Shown here piece after piece: positions 4,838 through 21,008 of a stretch of 44,331 nucleotides of DNA. The position numbers and the translations under genes were made by a program. The stretch lies in the NCBI GenBank assembly GCA_038063855.1, contig JBBTUF010000008.1, forward strand, positions 1-44,331, written 5' to 3'. The notes beneath the pieces are model-generated. The model searched no databases and was not told the origin of the DNA. It saw only the letters and a list, made by a program, of their open reading frames with translations. The number at the start of each line of letters is the position of its first letter. Positions within the stretch are counted from its first letter, which is position 1. The stretch is from Patescibacteria group bacterium (lineage in GTDB: Bacteria; Patescibacteriota; Minisyncoccia; Ryanbacterales; GWA2-47-10b).

Positions 4838-6472
4838 ATGAGCCGAGACCAAAAAGAGCAAAAAATTGAATACTTCCTTTACGCAAGGAAATCATCCGAA
4901 AGTGAGGACAGGCAGATTCAATCAATTGATGACCAAGAAAGCAACCTACGAAGACTTGCGAGTAATCTGGGAATCAAGATAAAGGAAGTTCTGACCGAAT
5001 CAAAATCTGCAAAGAAACCGTATTGCCGACCGGTATTTGCAAGCATGCTCGAAAGAATCGAGAAAGGAGAAGCACAAGGTATTCTCTGTTGGCAAATAAA
5101 TCGTCTCTCTCGTAATCCAGTAGATAGTGGCACACTCGGCTGGATGCTTCAACAGGGCGCCCTTAAATGTATCCGGACAATTGACCGCCAATACCTCCCC
5201 GATGATAACGTACTTCTCTTTAGCATCGAAACGGGCCAGGCCAATCAATTTATTATTGACCTCAAGAAAAACAGCATGCGAGGAATGATAGGTAAAGTAG
5301 AACGAGGCTGGCTCCCCTCCCGCGCCCCGATTGGATATTTGAACGACACAATTAAGAAAGTCATTATAAAAGACCCTGAACGATTTAATATAGTCCGAAA
5401 AATGTGGGATATGATGCTTACGGGGCACTATACTCCCCCGAAAGTTTTGCATATAGCAAATAATGAATGGGGATTAAGAACCGTAAAATATAAACGAGAA
5501 GGTGGGAAAGAACTTTCTACCAGTGGCATTTATAGAATGTTCACCAATGTGTTTTATATGGGAATTGTCGATTGGGGAGGTCAGCGGCGTGAAGGAAAAC
5601 ACGACCACATGATAACTCCTGCTGAATACGACCGAGTACAGCTTATTCTTGGGCGAGCTGGCAAGCCAAGACCGAAAACCCATAGCTTTGCCTTTACTGG
5701 TGCTATTAGATGCGACTCTTGCGGTTGCCTTTATACTGCAGAAACTAAACAAAGATTACTTATATCTGGAAAAGTAAACGAACATACATACTATCACTGC
5801 ACAAGAAAAACAAGAAAGATTATCTGCGACCAGAAAAAGCATATCCCCGTAGAGAATTTGGAACTTGCTATCGAAAAGGAAATTGAAAAATATACAATCT
5901 TGCCTGAGTTCTTGGAATGGGCGCTGGAAGGCTTGGACAAAAATAATGCTACCGAAATTGAAGATGAGGTAAGGATTCGTGAAATGAAGCAAAAGAATTT
6001 GTTGGAAGCCGAGAAAGAATTGGACGAACTTACCAAGATGCGTCGCCGACAGTTGATTGATGACGACTCATTCATTAAAGGAAAACAGGAGCTTCAACCT
6101 AAAATAGACCAAATGAAAGCCGCTCTCCAAGAGACAGAAACGCAGTCTGAGAAATGGATTGAACTTACCCAAAAGACGTTTAACTTCGCTACATACGCTC
6201 GAAAAGCCTTTATAACCGCCGAAGACAAAGAAGGGTTAGAACGGCAAAAAGAGATTCTGCTGGGACTTGGAGAAAGGCCTGTAATTAAAGGAGAAAAGCT
6301 CATTATTGAGCCTTATGAATGGTTGATCCCTATCAAAAAAGAGTACCCAGCCCTTGAGCGCGAATATCGAAGGTTAGAACGGCGTAAAATGCTTACGCCT
6401 CAAACAAAAACAGAGGCTCTCGCCTCTGTTCATGCACGATGGGGTGGCTATCGGGATTCGAACCCGGACTAA
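4838..6472 (+). CDS. Large serine recombinase (resolvase domain, recombinase domain, zinc ribbon and coiled coil)
   Basis: YFLYARKSSESEDRQ..., GILCWQINRLSRN and the Cys cluster CDSCGC...YYHCTRK. The last 11 codons (WGGYRDSNPD*) are antisense to the 3' part of tRNA-His. Confidence 0.9.
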   Translation: MSRDQKEQKIEYFLYARKSSESEDRQIQSIDDQESNLRRLASNLGIKIKEVLTESKSAKKPYCRPVFASMLERIEKGEAQGILCWQINRLSRNPVDSGTLGWMLQQGALKCIRTIDRQYLPDDNVLLFSIETGQANQFIIDLKKNSMRGMIGKVERGWLPSRAPIGYLNDTIKKVIIKDPERFNIVRKMWDMMLTGHYTPPKVLHIANNEWGLRTVKYKREGGKELSTSGIYRMFTNVFYMGIVDWGGQRREGKHDHMITPAEYDRVQLILGRAGKPRPKTHSFAFTGAIRCDSCGCLYTAETKQRLLISGKVNEHTYYHCTRKTRKIICDQKKHIPVENLELAIEKEIEKYTILPEFLEWALEGLDKNNATEIEDEVRIREMKQKNLLEAEKELDELTKMRRRQLIDDDSFIKGKQELQPKIDQMKAALQETETQSEKWIELTQKTFNFATYARKAFITAEDKEGLERQKEILLGLGERPVIKGEKLIIEPYEWLIPIKKEYPALEREYRRLERRKMLTPQTKTEALASVHARWGGYRDSNPD

Positions 6473-6514
6473 AAGCTCCACAAGCTTCTGTGCTGCCGTT
6501 ACACCATAGCCACC
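6440..6514 (-). tRNA. tRNA-His: tRNA-His(GUG) with encoded G-1 and CCA
   Basis: Hand fold of GGTGGCTATGGTGTAACGGCAGCACAGAAGCTTGTGGAGCTTTTAGTCCGGGTTCGAATCCCGATAGCCACCCCA. The acceptor GTGGCTA/TAGCCAC is perfect, the extra 5' G pairs with C73, the anticodon loop is TTGTGGA and the T-loop is TTCGAAT. Confidence 0.9.
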
Positions 6515-12326: not shown

Positions 12327-12354
12327 ATTAACAATGTTAATGATGTTAACTAGG
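12327..12354. promoter_or_regulatory. TTAACAATG / ATGTTAA repeat cluster (site A), likely near the left limit of element 2
   Basis: attaacaatgttaatgatgttaactagg matches 18496..18519 (attaacaatgttaacaaagttaac) at 21 of 24 positions. It contains the palindrome TTAACA-A-TGTTAA. Confidence 0.4.
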
Positions 12355-12450: not shown

Positions 12451-12660
12451 TTATTGTCCCGTGATCAGGTCGTTAAGGGATTTTATGTTATGTTGCTTGA
12501 GATAGTTCCCAAGCTTCATATCACTTCTGACACCGAAGTTCTTACCGTACTGCTTCTCAATGGTCCCCATTTGGGTGTCATCGCGCTTATCGCGCAATTG
12601 GCCATCTTGATTTCGTGAACGATATCCCTTCATGCCAGGAGCGTCTTTATGTTTAGTCAT
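12451..12660 (-). CDS. Small basic hypothetical protein (69 aa)
   Basis: ORF only. The C-terminal LGNYLKQHNIKSLNDLI is reminiscent of a helix-extension-helix DNA-binding motif. Confidence 0.4.
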   Translation of the reverse strand: MTKHKDAPGMKGYRSRNQDGQLRDKRDDTQMGTIEKQYGKNFGVRSDMKLGNYLKQHNIKSLNDLITGQ

Positions 12661-12919: not shown

Positions 12920-13729
12920 TCAAATTTTAATTTGATCATTCATAACTACTTGCACGCCATGGCTACCTACAACATCTCTCACACAAAGAATTCGTTCTTT
13001 AAATTCACCCGATTTAATACTCATGTCTCTTATACAGTCCCGACTCCATTTTCGCATCATTAATTTCGCCGCTCCCCGTAAAATCTCGAAAAGATCTTCT
13101 GGTGAAAGAAATTTTGCTTGAAATTTTGTAGCTAATTCTAGCTTTCTAGATTTCTCATTTAGTAAGTCGTGAGCAACTCCCATACCCTTACCAACCGAGA
13201 AAAAATGGGTCAAAGCATTTCTCAATTTTCTTAGATCATCTGGCGAGATATGTTGTATTCTTTCTGGATTTTTAATACTCCAATCATTATCTTTACTTAA
13301 ACAGAAATTTTCTATAAAAGCCTTTACAACTTTTTGATCCATCGCCCTACTAATGATCTCTCCTTGATCAAAAGTCTTATTATCATACGCAATATCCAAA
13401 CAAAATAGAGTTTCAAGATTAGCAAATAAAACAATCATTTCCGAACGAAGAGGATGATGAAATTTTAGATCGTCTGCAATATTAGCTGGATCCTCTGAAA
13501 GCTGATAATTAAAATCTATGGATTTCTCTTTCAGCTTATTTCCAAGAAATTCAACAAACTTGATTATCTCCAAATATCGATTTCTAATCGACTCTATTTT
13601 TTTATCAAAATTAAGAAGACTTTCGATTTCCTTCTCAATTTCTTTAAGAAAAGAAAATATGATTCGTAAATCTGGAGAGATTAAGACCCTTTGCTCATCA
13701 AAAATAAAATGCGTGCTTTCTTCTGACAT
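12920..13729 (-). CDS. Hypothetical protein with an Rx4H motif (HEPN-like, putative RNase)
   Basis: 269 aa with the motif DDLRKLRNALTHFF. The start lies 1 nt after the stop of the upstream gene. No family recognised. Confidence 0.5.
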   Translation of the reverse strand: MSEESTHFIFDEQRVLISPDLRIIFSFLKEIEKEIESLLNFDKKIESIRNRYLEIIKFVEFLGNKLKEKSIDFNYQLSEDPANIADDLKFHHPLRSEMIVLFANLETLFCLDIAYDNKTFDQGEIISRAMDQKVVKAFIENFCLSKDNDWSIKNPERIQHISPDDLRKLRNALTHFFSVGKGMGVAHDLLNEKSRKLELATKFQAKFLSPEDLFEILRGAAKLMMRKWSRDCIRDMSIKSGEFKERILCVRDVVGSHGVQVVMNDQIKI

Positions 13730-13730
13730 A

Positions 13731-14375
13731 TCATTGTGTATATCTAGAAAATATTTTAATATTTTCGAACAATGCTTTCATATATATTTCGAGAAATTCT
13801 TTATATGATATACCGCATTGGCCATATAATATTTTACCATTTGCTTTAAAACTAAAAAGAGATCCGTTGGCATCATCTACAACCCTCTTAAATATTCTAC
13901 CCGTATAGCTTCCTTCATGAGTATATTCACATCGTATTTTATATAAAACATCAGCAAAGTTCATATCGGGCACTTGTCCATCAATTCCAAAACTGGGTTT
14001 TATTTTATACTTGAGCTTAGATTCGACTGGCTCAAAGTATTTTTTTACTAGAGCTATTTTTTCACCCCTTTCTCCAAAGTTTCGGGATGTAATTTCGGCG
14101 TGTGATATTAGAATATATATTTTTATAATATCGACATCTTCGTGATTATTTTTCTCAAGAGCATCCAAAAAATCGCATATCTTTATAGCCTTATCTATCT
14201 TACTCAATAGATAACAAATCGTTTGCATCTTCTCGTAATTTATACCCATCACATACTTGTACACATGCTTTATATCCACATTAAACCGCTTAAAAAATAA
14301 TGAGATTTTACCCTCATCACTTTTCCAATTTTCTATCTGCCCCTGCTCCCATTTTTTCTGAAATTCATCATCCAT
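13731..14375 (-). CDS. Hypothetical protein with an Rx4H motif (HEPN-like, putative RNase)
   Basis: 214 aa with the motif LYKIRCEYTHEG. It is the first gene of the two-gene operon. Confidence 0.5.
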   Translation of the reverse strand: MDDEFQKKWEQGQIENWKSDEGKISLFFKRFNVDIKHVYKYVMGINYEKMQTICYLLSKIDKAIKICDFLDALEKNNHEDVDIIKIYILISHAEITSRNFGERGEKIALVKKYFEPVESKLKYKIKPSFGIDGQVPDMNFADVLYKIRCEYTHEGSYTGRIFKRVVDDANGSLFSFKANGKILYGQCGISYKEFLEIYMKALFENIKIFSRYTQ

Positions 14376-14483
14376 ATATTATTCTTGAATTCGCTCATTA
14401 TGTTGTTTTTTGGTCTTATTTTCAAGGTGAGTTTCACTGCTTAAGGAACTTGAAAAACGACTTGGAGGCGTTACACTAGATAC

Positions 14484-14604: not shown

Positions 14605-14677
14605 AACATAGCGGTTGTCCCTTTTTGTTTTGGTCGTGAATTATATAAAGCTCGATAAAATAAATAGTAAAGTTAAA

Positions 14678-15202
14678 ATGCTTGCCGGTAAAAAGCAGTA
14701 CTATTTTGGCAAGCTGATACCAAACACCAAAGTTATGTTTATAGCGGAGATGCCAACACAAGTACCACAAAATATATGGCATCAGAGCAAAAACTTTGAG
14801 TATTTTGAACATAGTAATACCGATGAAAAATTTATTGAGATTTTACAAAAGCATGGTTTTGGAGGATGTTATTTAACAGATATCATAAAAACAGCAACCG
14901 AAGCAAGAAGACCCACAAAACGGGAGTGTAAAGAATTTGTTCCTCTGCTCTTGAATGAGATCGAGATCATAAAACCTCATCTTATAATTGCCTTGGGGCG
15001 CAGTGCTGAAAAAATCTTAAAAAATAAAAAAATTGTAGGTGATCTTGTTGATGAGTATGAAATTAAATATTTGCGACACCCCTCGTCTGTATGGCGTATA
15101 AAACACCCAAGAAAAAAGCTTACTATTGCACAGAAGTGGAATATCTACGAGCTACAAATCAAAAAGCTTCAGTCTAAGCGTATAAAAACATGTGGACGGT
15201 AA
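14678..15202 (+). CDS. Uracil-DNA glycosylase superfamily protein (family 4/5-like)
   Basis: FIAEMP (GE.PG-like motif A), CYLTDIIK and YLRHPSSV (HPS motif B). The internal Met was chosen as the start. Confidence 0.5.
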   Translation: MLAGKKQYYFGKLIPNTKVMFIAEMPTQVPQNIWHQSKNFEYFEHSNTDEKFIEILQKHGFGGCYLTDIIKTATEARRPTKRECKEFVPLLLNEIEIIKPHLIIALGRSAEKILKNKKIVGDLVDEYEIKYLRHPSSVWRIKHPRKKLTIAQKWNIYELQIKKLQSKRIKTCGR

Positions 15203-16090: not shown

Positions 16091-16804
16091 ATGGCAGCTA
16101 AAAAGTTTCCATTCAAAGTTGACTCTCAAATTAAACGCTATATTAGCGAGATACTTGCTCATCGAAGAATGTACGAGCTTCTTTCGCCCAAGGAACTTGC
16201 GACCCATGAATTGGACTTGGAGCTATATAAACACCCTGAACACCCCACTACCCAACCTTCAGAAAATGGAAAATTATTTTTTGAGTATTTAGAAAAAAAG
16301 GGAATTATTAGTAAGCCATATTATCAGGACGAACGCGGCTACAGTTCGGGACCAGCCAGCATTATTGTTTACAAATCAAAAGCAAGTTTCAACTTACTGA
16401 ATGACGTCAAGATTGCACAGATCGGCGACATAATATCTCCGCAAAAACATTCTTATAAAGCCGGGAGGCTAATAACACAGGATTCCGAAGGAAACTTCTG
16501 CTATGGTCGTGATAAGAGAATATTTCTAGAAAAAGACAACCATCTTTACTATTACGTTTTTCTGGCAATATTTGTCCTGAGTAAAGAATGTGGCTCTGTA
16601 AAATATAACCGTATAATCGATTTTGTGAAGAAACATTTTAAAAACCCGAAAAGGACTCGACCTTTAACAGAAAAATCGATACAGAACACAATCAATAACT
16701 CGATCAAAGAAATGCTGCCGGAGACTGCTACGGTGAATGGTGATGAAATACTGAAAGCCTTGGATGGGGTCGGTATAGAGTTCAAAAATCCTTTTATTTC
16801 GTAA
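16091..16804 (+). CDS. Hypothetical protein (237 aa)
   Basis: ORF only. Confidence 0.45.
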   Translation: MAAKKFPFKVDSQIKRYISEILAHRRMYELLSPKELATHELDLELYKHPEHPTTQPSENGKLFFEYLEKKGIISKPYYQDERGYSSGPASIIVYKSKASFNLLNDVKIAQIGDIISPQKHSYKAGRLITQDSEGNFCYGRDKRIFLEKDNHLYYYVFLAIFVLSKECGSVKYNRIIDFVKKHFKNPKRTRPLTEKSIQNTINNSIKEMLPETATVNGDEILKALDGVGIEFKNPFIS

Positions 16805-17141: not shown

Positions 17142-18500
17142 ATGGAAACAAACGACATAACAGCTACTTCATATATTTTTAATGACGGCAGAATTGCAGA
17201 AATGATCTACGGCCCGTTAAAAAAGATTACTGGCTTTGCACTTTGGGAGAACAACAAAATGAGCATTGAATTAAAGATACAGCTTGATGACGAGAGTAAA
17301 GCAAACATCATCCCACTCTCTGCAAAAAATGGCATGGTCGCAAAAAAGTTTGTACTCTTCCCTTCTACAGCAACGGAGTACGTTTCAAACCTGGAACTTT
17401 ATAATGAGGTGCGAAGCTTCTTAAGTAAGTACATAACACTCCCTTCGCAATTTCTAACAGTGGCAACGGCATACGTAATGATGAGTTGGGTTCATGACCA
17501 ATTCCATACGCTACCTTACTTGAGGGTAATCGGACTATACGGCACTGGTAAAACACGATTTTTGGAGGTAACAGGCAACATAAGCTATAAAAGCATGATC
17601 GCTGGCGGATCAATCTCGCACGCTGCCGTCTTCCGTACAATCGACATGATTAAAGGAACATTGGTATTTGATGAAGCTGATTTTAGAAGCTCTGAAATAT
17701 GGTCTGAAATCGTGAAAATCCTCAACTCCGGCCATACTAAGGGATTCCCGGTTGTCCGAATGGAGAAAAATAAAGGAGATAAATTTGACCCCACAACTTT
17801 TGAGGTCTTTGGTCCAAAAATCTTAGCTTCACGAGAACGCTTTGTTGATGAAGCACTCGAAAGCAGATGCTTGACTCAATACCTTCTCCCCCTGAAGCAC
17901 AATACAGCACCAACACATTTACCAAAAGAATTTGAACAAGAGGCGCTTGATCTGCGTAATAAGCTACTCATGTTCAGGTTTAAAAATCTCGGCCATATAC
18001 CAATTGATGAAACAACCGTAAAAGACAGCGGCATCTTGAGATTAAAACAAAGTGCCCTCGCACTCACATGTGTAGCAAAAGCAATTGATGAGAATATTCT
18101 TACGAAGGTAACTGAATTTCTTAAAGATTATGAAAACGAATTACAAGCACAGCAAGTAAACGATGTTAAAGCGGATGTCCTGATATGCATTCTTGGGTGC
18201 CTGAAGAAAAACAAGACGGAGAAAATTCGAATAGGTGAAATTGCAAAGGAATTTGAAGATCGGTTTAAAGAGCATTATTCGGATATCCAAACAGAAAAGT
18301 ACGACTACGACTCAAAGATGTTCTTTTCAAATCATGACATTCGAATCAGCCCAAAGCGTGTTGGAAGTGTTGTACGGAAACTTGGCATAGGGCTTCGGCG
18401 AGATGGGCATGGATTTTATATCCCCATACCAGAAGAACAACGCAGGATTCAGTTGTTAGCAGAGCGTTACGGCATCGATCAATACCCAGAAAGTAATTAA
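17142..18500 (+). CDS. P-loop NTPase, DUF3631-like (element replication or maintenance protein)
   Basis: Walker A GLYGTGKT and Walker B LVFDEAD. NSGHTKGFPVVRM...FEVFGPKILASRE...ESRCLT resembles the DUF3631 pattern. Confidence 0.6.
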   Translation: METNDITATSYIFNDGRIAEMIYGPLKKITGFALWENNKMSIELKIQLDDESKANIIPLSAKNGMVAKKFVLFPSTATEYVSNLELYNEVRSFLSKYITLPSQFLTVATAYVMMSWVHDQFHTLPYLRVIGLYGTGKTRFLEVTGNISYKSMIAGGSISHAAVFRTIDMIKGTLVFDEADFRSSEIWSEIVKILNSGHTKGFPVVRMEKNKGDKFDPTTFEVFGPKILASRERFVDEALESRCLTQYLLPLKHNTAPTHLPKEFEQEALDLRNKLLMFRFKNLGHIPIDETTVKDSGILRLKQSALALTCVAKAIDENILTKVTEFLKDYENELQAQQVNDVKADVLICILGCLKKNKTEKIRIGEIAKEFEDRFKEHYSDIQTEKYDYDSKMFFSNHDIRISPKRVGSVVRKLGIGLRRDGHGFYIPIPEEQRRIQLLAERYGIDQYPESN

Positions 18501-18519
18501 CAATGTTAACAAAGTTAAC
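18496..18519. promoter_or_regulatory. TTAACAATG / GTTAAC repeat cluster (site B) upstream of recombinase 2
   Basis: attaacaatgttaacaaagttaac overlaps the stop of the P-loop gene, about 150 nt upstream of the recombinase ATG. Confidence 0.4.
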
Positions 18520-18670
18520 ATTCCCTAGGGTATTGGTATAATAAAAATGCTTAGAAGTGGTGGACTTGAAACTATTATCAATTCGCAATATATTTATTTC
18601 AGCACCAGAGCTTCATCACTTCTAAGCAATTTGATGGTTTCAGCTCTGGTGCTTTTAGTTGCTTAAAAAT

Positions 18671-20353
18671 ATGGACAATCATGACATTAAATATTTTCTC
18701 TATGCAAGAAGATCGGTAGAGAAAAAAGACGGGGAGGAAAAAATTATCTCTGTTGAATCACAGCTCAAGGAAATGCGTGAACTTGGAAAGCGAGAAGGCT
18801 TGAAAATTATAAAAACCTTCGAAGAAACAAAGTCTGCAAAGTATCCTGGTCGTCCTGTATTTGGTGAGATGATAAAGAGAATTCAAAAAGGTGAAGCTCA
18901 AGGTATTATCTGCTTCAAGATTGATAGATTGGCTCGTAATCCTTTAGACGAGGGTACTGTTAAATATCTCTTGCGAGAAAGAATTATCAAACACATTAGA
19001 GCTTCCGATAGAAGTTGGTTTCCTGAAGATAATGCTCTCATCGCTTCTGTAGAGTTTGGTGTTGCAGATCAGTTTTCTCGTGATCTTGGTAAGCACGTTA
19101 AAAGAGGTATTCGGGTAAAGCTTGAAAAGGGTGATAGGCCTGGTGTTGCTCCTCTAGGTTACAAAAACAGCAAGCTTCGACTTAAGGGAGAAGAAACTGT
19201 ACTGGTTGATGAGGAACGCTTTCCTCTTGTACGCAAGATATTTGACTTCTTGCTTAGTGGTAAATATTCAGCCCTTGCTATATGGAAAATTGCAACCAAT
19301 GATTGGCTATTAAGAAATCGTAGGGGTGGAAAAATTGCTCGATCTCAAGTTTACAACATCCTCTCAAATCCTTACTACTACGGCATGTTTGAGTGGCCTG
19401 TGGGTTCTGGTACTTGGTACAAAGGGAACCACACTCCAATGATCACCGAAGAAGAATATGATGTTGTTCAATACCTTTTAGGCAGAAAGGGACAACCCAG
19501 ACCTAAGACTCATATCTTTGCTTATACAGGCCTGATGAAATGCGGCCAGTGTGGAGCTTCAATTACAGCTTCAGAAAAATGGAAGCATCAACGAAACGGC
19601 AATGTCCATCATTACATTTATTACCATTGCACAAGAAGAGTGAGTCCTGGTTGCACACAAATCGCTGTTACTGAAAAAGCTCTTGAAAAAGAAATTCTTG
19701 ATTTCCTTAGCCGCATTGAAATACCTCCCGAATTCCATGAATGGGCTATTGAAGAATTGAAAATACGGCATGAACGGGAAAAGAAGGATCGAAACAGTGT
19801 ACTTCACAATCAGCAATTAGCTTACGATAAGGTAATTTCCGATCTTGATATGATATTAGAACTACGCATGGCTAAGGAATTGACTGCGGAAGATTATGCG
19901 GTGAAAAAAGCAAAACTGGAAAAAGATAAACTCACACTCAAGAAAAATCTCGATACAGTTGATGAAAGAGTGGATCAGTGGTTGGAAAAAGCAGAGGAGT
20001 TCTATTCTTTAGCGGAGACAGCACGAGCTGAATTCCAAGCTGGCGATTTAGAGAAGCGGAAAAGTATCTTTGCCAAGCTAGGTTCGCACCACTTGCTTAG
20101 AGACAAAATACTAACAATACAAACGGAAAAACCGGTTTTGGTCATAGAAAGATCCGCAAATGAAGTACGCCGGATTCACGAGAGGTTGGAACCGACAAAA
20201 AATGTTGCAGACAAAGAACAACTAAAGAAACTGTACTCAAAAAATCTTACTCTGTGCGCGGGAGAGGACTCGAACCTCCACGGGATTGCTCCCACATGCC
20301 CCTCAAGCATGCACGGCTACCAGTTACGTCACCCGCGCGTATCTATATTGTAA
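18671..20353 (+). CDS. Large serine recombinase, paralogue of 4838..6472
   Basis: KYFLYARRSVEKKD..., GIICFKIDRLARN, CGQCGAS...YYHCTRR and a coiled coil. The ATG at codon 5 of the track ORF was used. The last 33 codons are antisense to tRNA-Leu and 15 nt beyond it. Confidence 0.9.
   Translation: MDNHDIKYFLYARRSVEKKDGEEKIISVESQLKEMRELGKREGLKIIKTFEETKSAKYPGRPVFGEMIKRIQKGEAQGIICFKIDRLARNPLDEGTVKYLLRERIIKHIRASDRSWFPEDNALIASVEFGVADQFSRDLGKHVKRGIRVKLEKGDRPGVAPLGYKNSKLRLKGEETVLVDEERFPLVRKIFDFLLSGKYSALAIWKIATNDWLLRNRRGGKIARSQVYNILSNPYYYGMFEWPVGSGTWYKGNHTPMITEEEYDVVQYLLGRKGQPRPKTHIFAYTGLMKCGQCGASITASEKWKHQRNGNVHHYIYYHCTRRVSPGCTQIAVTEKALEKEILDFLSRIEIPPEFHEWAIEELKIRHEREKKDRNSVLHNQQLAYDKVISDLDMILELRMAKELTAEDYAVKKAKLEKDKLTLKKNLDTVDERVDQWLEKAEEFYSLAETARAEFQAGDLEKRKSIFAKLGSHHLLRDKILTIQTEKPVLVIERSANEVRRIHERLEPTKNVADKEQLKKLYSKNLTLCAGEDSNLHGIAPTCPSSMHGYQLRHPRVSIL
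20255..20338 (-). tRNA. tRNA-Leu: tRNA-Leu(GAG), class II with a long variable arm, no encoded CCA
   Basis: GCGCGGGTGACGTAACTGGTAGCCGTGCATGCTTGAGGGGCATGTGGGAGCAATCCCGTGGAGGTTCGAGTCCTCTCCCGCGCA. The acceptor GCGCGGG/CCCGCGC is perfect and the anticodon loop is TTGAGGG. Confidence 0.9.
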
Positions 20354-21008
20354 GACCCACTATAGCTAAAGCTTTTTCAATTTTCAACCGCTTTCTTTTT
20401 AAGCACACCTTATGTTTGCTATAATACATCGCTTTTAAGATTTTTAATGATTCTCTTTTCCCATATTTTATTTGAAGCGTACTTTTTTTTCTGCCACTGT
20501 AATTAATATGCCCTTTTATATGAATACGCTTTTGAATTTCTTTGCGAATCCATACGATATATCTTTCGCTCGCTGAAATGAAGCATGTATAGAACATAAA
20601 ACTTGAGCGCCAACGAGGATCATAGTACGAATAAAATGTGCCGTCGCCATCAAACGACCCTCGTAAAAAATCGAAAAAATATTTTTTTGGTATATCGATT
20701 TCCCCAAGAGTACGCGACTTCGCTGGAGTCAAGCCAATAGCAAGAAGGAATTTATAAAAAAGTACGTCTCCGAACTGTACACGATAATATCGCTTCTTGC
20801 TCGACCCTGAGCCTTTTGTTCCAATTTTTACTTTTATTTTTAAACAGTGTAATATGTTCTCGAGTTGATCTCGATCTTTCGATGTTATATCAATATGCCG
20901 CCCATCATTCAGTAAACATCCATCAGTCGTAATAAGTCCAATTGCATAGGCAAATTCTGGCGACCATTCTATTTTGACATTACCCTTTGGCTTTGACCCA
21001 GGTTTCAT
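20343..21008 (-). CDS. LAGLIDADG homing endonuclease (two-motif, free-standing)
   Basis: FAYAIGLITTDGC and FLRGSFDGDGT. It ends 4 nt before the 5' end of tRNA-Leu. Confidence 0.85.
   Translation of the reverse strand: MKPGSKPKGNVKIEWSPEFAYAIGLITTDGCLLNDGRHIDITSKDRDQLENILHCLKIKVKIGTKGSGSSKKRYYRVQFGDVLFYKFLLAIGLTPAKSRTLGEIDIPKKYFFDFLRGSFDGDGTFYSYYDPRWRSSFMFYTCFISASERYIVWIRKEIQKRIHIKGHINYSGRKKSTLQIKYGKRESLKILKAMYYSKHKVCLKRKRLKIEKALAIVGLTI

Follow-up and report, generated by a model that had tools for sequence, protein, structure and literature searches.

At least 16 clades of HEPN proteins are linked to restriction-modification (R-M) systems, and by analogy with PrrC/EcoprrI they have been read as latent RNases that form a second line of defense when restriction is subverted (Anantharaman et al. 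2013, Biol Direct 8:15, PMC3710099). Here, we analyzed two adjacent genes, A and B, on a 44,331-nt contig of a Patescibacteria group bacterium (GenBank assembly GCA_038063855.1, contig JBBTUF010000008.1), the whole of which is referred to as the window. Gene A (13731..14375, minus strand) encodes a HEPN-like protein of 214 aa, and gene B (12920..13729, minus strand) a HEPN-like protein of 269 aa that belongs to an unannotated family. A first-pass annotation, made from the sequence alone, had proposed that the two form an undescribed cassette for a heterodimeric HEPN RNase acting in abortive infection or element addiction. On balance, and with a little more confidence than doubt, we read A and B instead as two separate stand-alone HEPN-type putative RNases, i.e. 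mobile accessory defense or toxin genes that lie side by side as cargo of an island. We take the genes to be independent because A and B are not linked elsewhere and the two families recur separately in R-M operons. Two small HEPN-like families, one of them wholly unannotated, would thereby be added to the R-M-associated second-line effectors, in Patescibacteria and other uncultured hosts with tiny genomes, whose phage defense is poorly charted.

The R-M-linked stand-alone HEPN families, such as Abi2/AbiD/AbiF, Ymh, DUF4209/C6orf70 and the pEK499_p136-like proteins, are closest in kind to A and B. The A and B families share with them a small protein size and a conserved Rx4H (RNxxxH) motif at a helix terminus; an acidic residue precedes the motif in both, possibly the counterpart of that in HEPN proteins, and genes of both families occur within type I and type III R-M operons as well as on mobile islands. 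Unlike them, A and B of the window remain below every threshold of the Pfam HEPN clan and are not accompanied by an R-M system.

The anticodon nucleases PrrC and RloC are likewise HEPN-type RNases whose genes are inserted in type I R-M operons, where they provide a second line of defense. Relatives of A and B share this slot between hsdS and hsdR, whereas the pair in the window lies outside any R-M operon. PrrC and RloC possess a large N-terminal ABC-ATPase domain, for which A and B are too short, and neither Pfam nor NCBIfam models detected an ATPase domain in either protein. HEPN-MNT toxin-antitoxin systems resemble A and B in that a small Rx4H protein is encoded on mobile DNA in a tight two-gene layout. 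No nucleotidyltransferase partner was found by Pfam among the neighbors in the window or among the conserved neighbors of the relatives. For want of an ATPase domain and of a nucleotidyltransferase partner, respectively, A and B are neither PrrC/RloC proteins nor members of an HEPN-MNT system. The earlier description of a mobile or defense setting without an MNT, ATPase or Cas partner holds for both genes.

Conserved Rx4H motifs and probable HEPN membership

Both open reading frames (ORFs) are present on the minus strand as previously described, and the junction from A to B reads ...CAA TGA t ATG..., which leaves a single nucleotide between the two genes. Each protein carries an Rx4H motif. 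In A, it lies in the stretch VLYKIRCEYTHEGSY / LYKIRCEYTHEG and comprises R148-C-E-Y-T-H153 (codons at 13917..13934, minus strand); in B, it lies in DDLRKLRNALTHFF and comprises R170-N-A-L-T-H175 (codons at 13205..13222, minus strand), a canonical R-N-x3-H motif. The first-pass annotation had cautioned that so short a motif can arise by chance, and indeed 11 of the 48 gene-like ORFs in the window contain a bare R-x4-H, which is not above chance expectation. The motifs of A and B are lifted above this background because their Arg and His residues are conserved in both families, R148/H153 and R170/H175 being invariant among the homologues.

Protein A has 62 homologues, all named 'hypothetical', and an exhaustive profile search of 1.84 billion representative sequences with A returned only 58 clusters. 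Alignments were built with 35 close relatives (close alignment) and with 40 diverse relatives of 17-47% identity (wide alignment). Only two columns of the wide alignment, R148 and H153, show no variation, and both are also invariant among the 35 close relatives. Around the motif, the wide consensus is LYxIRNxxxHEGxY, with Asn following the Arg (RNxxxHEG). Judged from these alignments, the classic polar Asn is the family consensus, from which Cys149 of window A departs as a subfamily variant. E94, located in helix 82-99 preceding the motif, reaches a conservation of at least 90% across the wide alignment; as part of an E-x3-R it occurs in window A only. The published HEPN signature includes a conserved upstream acidic residue (often Ex3[KR]) and a polar N, D or H after the Arg (PMC3710099).

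Two other candidate sites in A were discarded. A Cys/His metal site (C67, H92, C149, H153) was rejected, as C67, H92 and C149 are not conserved among the 40 relatives and C149 is replaced by Asn in the consensus. A catalytic set D80/D82/K85 was rejected as well, its residues being unconserved in the same alignment. Searches of plasmid and phage sequences by tblastn with A gave no matches. P0185, a distant relative of A (L052-L055), has a context that is not one of defense: its gene overlaps a Memo/AMMECR1 gene by 4 nt and is flanked on the other side by RNA-methyltransferase and radical-SAM genes (PF04452, PF00919). Part of the family may therefore have a housekeeping role in RNA processing.

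Protein B has 87-132 homologues, all 'hypothetical' and none with a Pfam domain. Across 37 relatives, down to 36% identity, no substitution occurs at R170, N171, L173 or H175. E106 is at least 90% conserved and lies in helix 94-117, a possible counterpart of HEPN helix-2. Four members of the family (P0137, P0141, P0142, P0146) lack roughly residues 55-95, part of the N-terminal long helical hairpin, yet keep the strands at the N-terminus and the RNxxxH core in full; from this comparison the missing segment appears dispensable. The homologue at locus L012 (Candidatus Gracilibacteria) is broken under translation table 11, with only residues 59-180 in one ORF. Gracilibacteria use an alternative genetic code in which UGA encodes Gly, and the fragmentation is probably due to this code and not to pseudogene formation. 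B was absent from IMG/VR, and tblastn with B and its divergent relatives P0148 and P0149 against plasmid and phage sequences gave no matches.

AlphaFold2 (AF2) models of both proteins are largely helical, with pLDDT values of 93 (A) and 88 (B). In DSSP assignments on these models, predicted helix 140-154 of A carries the motif at its C-terminal end and gives way to a loop, a beta-hairpin and helix 191-210; predicted helix 163-174 of B likewise has the motif at its C-terminal end, ahead of a loop. In HEPN proteins, Rx4-6H is found where helix-3 of the all-alpha core ends or the loop toward helix-4 begins (PMC3710099). The helix-end location in both models matches the published position, in a comparison based on secondary-structure assignments.

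Closest in sequence to A are a Vibrio protein, WP_050921859.1 (a cluster of 52 members), and proteins that match the DzbB model. WP_050921859.1 is named 'HEPN domain-containing protein' in RefSeq and UniRef and is the product of a solitary gene on a Vibrio harveyi plasmid. It was reached by tblastn with the distant A relatives P0204 and P0184; tblastn with A itself did not recover the gene. The close A alignment matched it in hhalign with 95.9% probability (E 5.7e-9), and the wide A alignment with 99.9%. The homology covers the AE helix, the FF motif, LYxIRCxxxHEGxY and the last helix. The Vibrio gene stands alone on a mobile element, beside a recombinase-family gene. Unlike A, the protein has 190 aa, lacks the ~40 N-terminal residues of A and is encoded on a proteobacterial conjugative plasmid. 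Relatives of A also gave sub-threshold matches to the Pfam models Abi_2 (0.0024), HEPN_Swt1 and HEPN_Apea, and weak matches to AbiD, DUF3644, Cas13a and Cas13d in PADLOC, all of them models that include HEPN.

DzbB is an uncharacterized component of the defense system Dazbog (Millman et al. 2022). Dazbog acts by abortive infection and is linked to the methylation status of DNA, and hence to R-M biology. The PADLOC model for DzbB (PDLC03836) was matched by 7 of the 40 A relatives, with a best E-value of 3.8e-6, whereas window A matched no PADLOC family even at E <=10. DzbA (DUF262), the partner of DzbB that defines Dazbog, was not detected by Pfam among the neighbors in the window or among the recurrent neighbors of A. 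Among the loci, a DUF262-type DGQQR signature was seen only in L032, 2.4 kb from A. No DUF262 neighbor was seen for P0184, P0185, P0187, P0192, P0201 or P0204, most of these contigs being too short to tell. We also considered A and B as a divergent Dazbog pair and rejected this, as B is not a DUF262 protein and no DUF262 gene adjoins A; A is not a Dazbog system. Conversely, DzbB may itself be a HEPN-like RNxxxH protein, because the sequences that match its model fall within the A family, where only the R and H of RNxxxH are invariant. A literature search found no statement that DzbB is a HEPN protein. If this sequence-based reading of DzbB is correct, Dazbog would have an RNase effector.

With its invariant Arg and His and its homology to a RefSeq HEPN protein, A quite probably belongs to HEPN, as the first-pass annotation had suggested; for B the same assignment is probable but distinctly less firm. 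The label 'undescribed' suits B, which has no annotated relative, but not A, which is homologous to an annotated HEPN protein and whose wider family overlaps the DzbB model. Several observations weigh against taking A and B for HEPN-type RNases. Neither window protein reached the threshold of any model in Pfam, NCBIfam, PADLOC or PHROGs, and the residue after the Arg in A and its close family is Cys and not N, D or H. The B family shows only scattered sub-threshold similarities (HEPN_Apea 0.12, Csx1 0.0028, CARF_HEPN 0.004, Cas13a 0.026). In addition, 6 of 37 B members weakly match the DpdA model (PDLC02809; best E 0.0026), a similarity that may be compositional, DpdA having no obvious relation to HEPN. 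Although the models are confident and the motifs well placed in them, Foldseek retrieved no HEPN structure from the PDB with either protein (best E 0.14 for A and 0.41 for B, TM <=0.25); whole-chain searches of this kind perform poorly on small helical domains that contain inserts, and such a null result is no disproof. A search of BFVD with A yielded a single, unnamed match, and profile searches against PDB sequences with the close A, wide A and B alignments found nothing.

Such negative results would also be expected if one or both proteins were not RNases at all. In that case, the R...H pair would serve another purpose, for instance the binding of nucleic acids or ligands, or a regulatory or anti-defense role in R-M operons, and the resemblance to HEPN would be superficial; B, which lacks any annotated relative, is the most plausible case, and the housekeeping context of P0185 shows that some distant A relatives occur outside defense loci. 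A version of this explanation based on a metal site fails on the lack of conservation of C67, H92 and C149 described above. Furthermore, a sole invariant R/H pair, a polar Asn, an upstream Glu, the helix-end position and the embedding in R-M loci in combination agree with the published signature of HEPN, and relatives of A have been independently annotated as HEPN. We therefore consider a function other than that of an RNase quite improbable, and retain the interpretation of A and B as HEPN-type proteins.

Separate recurrence of A and B in restriction-modification loci

A conserved cassette should keep its two genes together in other genomes. We collected 21 genome loci with B relatives (L001-L021) and 29 metagenome loci with A relatives (L022-L050) and searched all six-frame ORFs of these loci with the hidden Markov models of both families. 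Loci were regarded as testable when B had at least 700 nt of upstream sequence (20 loci) or A at least 850 nt of downstream sequence (18 loci). The partner was missing in every one of them (0/20 for B, 0/18 for A, 0/38 together), and A and B co-occurred in none of the 51 loci overall. B was likewise absent from L051, an IMG/VR contig that carries A. Even the nearest homologues have other neighbors, both for A (68% identity, L022) and for B (60-61%, L001-L004). The A-B gene order was found in three other assemblies, which apparently stem from the same groundwater population, and the pair is thus known only from assemblies of one population.

These results bear directly on the proposal of the first-pass annotation that A and B are the subunits of a dedicated heterodimeric HEPN RNase, i.e. 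a conserved abortive-infection or addiction cassette. What had suggested it is real: the genes share a strand and a TGA-t-ATG junction, Rx4H is invariant in both families, and the pair is kept in all four assemblies of the population. A and B are probably co-transcribed. The best sigma-70-like promoter match on the minus strand, TTGAAA-17-CATAAT (14397..14425), lies 22 nt 5' of the ATG of A, and consensus-type matching found no terminator-like site between A and B. As a consensus match only, and with the number of such matches not above shuffled expectation, the site is compatible with co-transcription. In hhalign, the close A and B alignments showed no detectable relation. With the wide A alignment, E94/E106, FF/F138, R148/R170 and H153/H175 fell in register over 140 columns, but at a probability of only 4%; a homology between A and B is not claimed. 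With the partner missing in 38 of 38 testable loci and in L051, other neighbors beside the closest homologues of both genes, and two families that are not detectably related, the heterodimer cassette is largely refuted by the absent linkage, and we regard it as very improbable. The locus may serve as a cautionary case, in which a tight junction and matching motifs resembled a cassette and the comparative context pointed to two independent genes.

The neighbors of the relatives were assigned by clustering neighboring ORFs and scanning cluster representatives against Pfam. Both families are nearly confined to uncultured lineages, mainly Patescibacteria, and both recur in R-M loci. In type I systems, B is found in the order HsdM-HsdS-(x)-B-HsdR (L009, L011, L016) or HsdR-B-HsdM (L014). 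A is found as HsdS-A-HsdR with -1 nt overlaps (L047, L048) or as HsdS-c9-A-HsdR (L043-45), c9 being a cluster of neighboring ORFs; it lies between HsdS and HsdR in L041 as well, and L042 is a further type I locus with A. Genes for type III Mod/Res or for type II methyltransferases are located near B in eight loci (L001-L005, L007, L013, L020) and near A in six (L022, L027, L031, L040, L049, L051). Further R-M-linked ORFs nearby encode DUF3800, RhuM, YgjP-like, WYL and PIN proteins. Loci L021, L025 and L047 contain, close to A or B, large serine recombinases homologous to that of the window.

The neighbors of A show one further regularity, which weighs against full independence. An R[NDH]x3H motif is present in 9 of 42 ORFs directly flanking A, compared to 3 of 136 other ORFs (Fisher p = 1.4e-4; loci L022-L050 with near-identical loci removed; 9 of 25 loci positive), this expression being a crude proxy for HEPN. 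For B, the same test was not significant (2/38 versus 4/203). The HEPN-like neighbors of A belong to at least four unrelated families: c9 (RNQLFH/RHKLDH), c14 (WRNxLAH, with a weak RiboL-PSP-HEPN match), a protein of the recognized HEPN family DUF4209 in L049, a DUF7380 protein in L039 and the upstream ORF of L022. Their spacing to A is tight or overlapping, as it is in the window. When B was compared by hhalign with these neighbors and with the Vibrio HEPN protein, no signal was obtained.

It is conceivable, therefore, that A works with a variable second HEPN protein, B belonging to a set of at least five partner families that can replace one another. For A, this would save the earlier proposal in a generalized form, without a fixed A-B cassette; the partners could form a hetero-oligomeric RNase whose active site is composite and Cas13-like, or a toxin/regulator pair. 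Apart from the flank enrichment, the diversity of the partners and the 1-nt spacing in the window, the operon of Bxe_C0808 with AbiU2 sets a precedent for two different HEPN families in one operon. However, 16 of the 25 loci have no HEPN-like neighbor, and one of the nine matches, RDIVEH in HsdR of L047, is probably due to chance. In L047 and L048, HsdS and HsdR are the immediate neighbors of A, with the overlaps mentioned above, opposite-strand genes flank A in L029, L030 and L033, and the Vibrio relative is solitary. The same enrichment could arise if accessory effectors shared an insertion hot-spot in defense islands. We judge such a partnership unlikely. Its most specific form, in which the A family is a 'universal half-enzyme' that pairs with whichever HEPN protein is adjacent (B, c9, c14, DUF4209-type and others), seems to us decidedly doubtful. 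If it were true, the RNase site would be composite and hetero-dimeric, resembling that of the two unlike HEPN domains of Cas13 but split over two polypeptides, and the variable partner would set the trigger or target specificity. In any case, the adjacency of A to unrelated HEPN-like genes is a lead on the cooperation of separately encoded HEPN proteins.

We return to the reading of A and B as separate effectors. By analogy with HEPN RNases, each protein would homo-oligomerize, so that two Rx4H motifs come together in one metal-independent active site. By analogy with PrrC and RloC, each might remain latent until an infection cue is received. The activated protein would then cleave cellular or phage RNA, resulting in abortive infection or growth arrest. 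Features of the window also count against such a scheme. There are no R-M genes anywhere in its 44 kb, so that a PrrC-like masking partner is absent and the restraint of toxicity unexplained, and the 1-nt spacing between A and B, together with the HEPN-like neighbors of A elsewhere, leaves room for functional coupling.

The probable tRNA-Leu island and other features of the window

The locus is AT-rich, as had been noted: GC content is 0.319 at 13-14 kb, compared to roughly 0.40-0.46 in most of the window. A large serine recombinase of 564 aa (18659..20353, plus strand) with the Pfam domains Resolvase, Recombinase and Zn_ribbon_recom is encoded to the right of the pair, and the 3' end of its gene overlaps a tRNA-Leu(GAG) gene detected by ARAGORN (20254..20338, minus strand), which marks the right-hand boundary of the island. 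This overlap supports the presence of an integrative island that carries A and B. The placement of the pair inside a tRNA-Leu integrative element, as made by the first-pass annotation, is thus reasonable; a duplicated tRNA-Leu fragment that would mark the left end of the element was looked for, and none was found. In our reading, the island at tRNA-Leu spans roughly 8 kb of low-GC DNA and carries A and B as cargo. To the right of the tRNA gene lie housekeeping genes (L19, pseudouridine synthase), and to the left of about 12.3 kb a gene for a DUF4349 protein and other chromosomal genes.

The stretch between the A-B pair and the recombinase gene contains a gene for a protein of the uracil-DNA glycosylase (UDG) superfamily, identified by a family scan (14615..15202, plus strand), several small ORFs, an ORF of 237 aa (16091..16804, plus strand) and an ORF of 452 aa (17142..18500, plus strand). 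The 452-aa product contains a Walker-A-like GTGKT and DEAD-like motifs. The family scan gave no match for the small ORFs, the 237-aa ORF or the 452-aa ORF of the island. The two longer ORFs may be replication or maintenance genes of the element.

The search for island ends gave one notable repeat, a 24-nt direct repeat, ATTAACAATGTTAAyrAwGTTAAC, at 12327..12350 and 18496..18519. The copies are 88% identical and contain a near-palindrome. The first is located just left of a small ORF (12451..12660) preceding B, and the second after the 452-aa ORF, ahead of the recombinase gene. The repeat could be an operator, an iteron or an att-related site of the island.

Directly beside tRNA-Leu, a free-standing ORF of 221 aa (20343..21008, minus strand) encodes a LAGLIDADG_3-type, homing-endonuclease-like protein; it lies upstream of the gene for ribosomal protein L19. 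A second large serine recombinase of 544 aa (4838..6472, plus strand), with Resolvase and Zn_ribbon_recom domains, is encoded elsewhere in the window. Its gene runs into tRNA-His (6440..6513, minus strand) in the same geometry as at tRNA-Leu, and GC content to its left (1-3 kb) is low, at 0.35-0.36. Geometry and composition together suggest a second integrative island of the same type.

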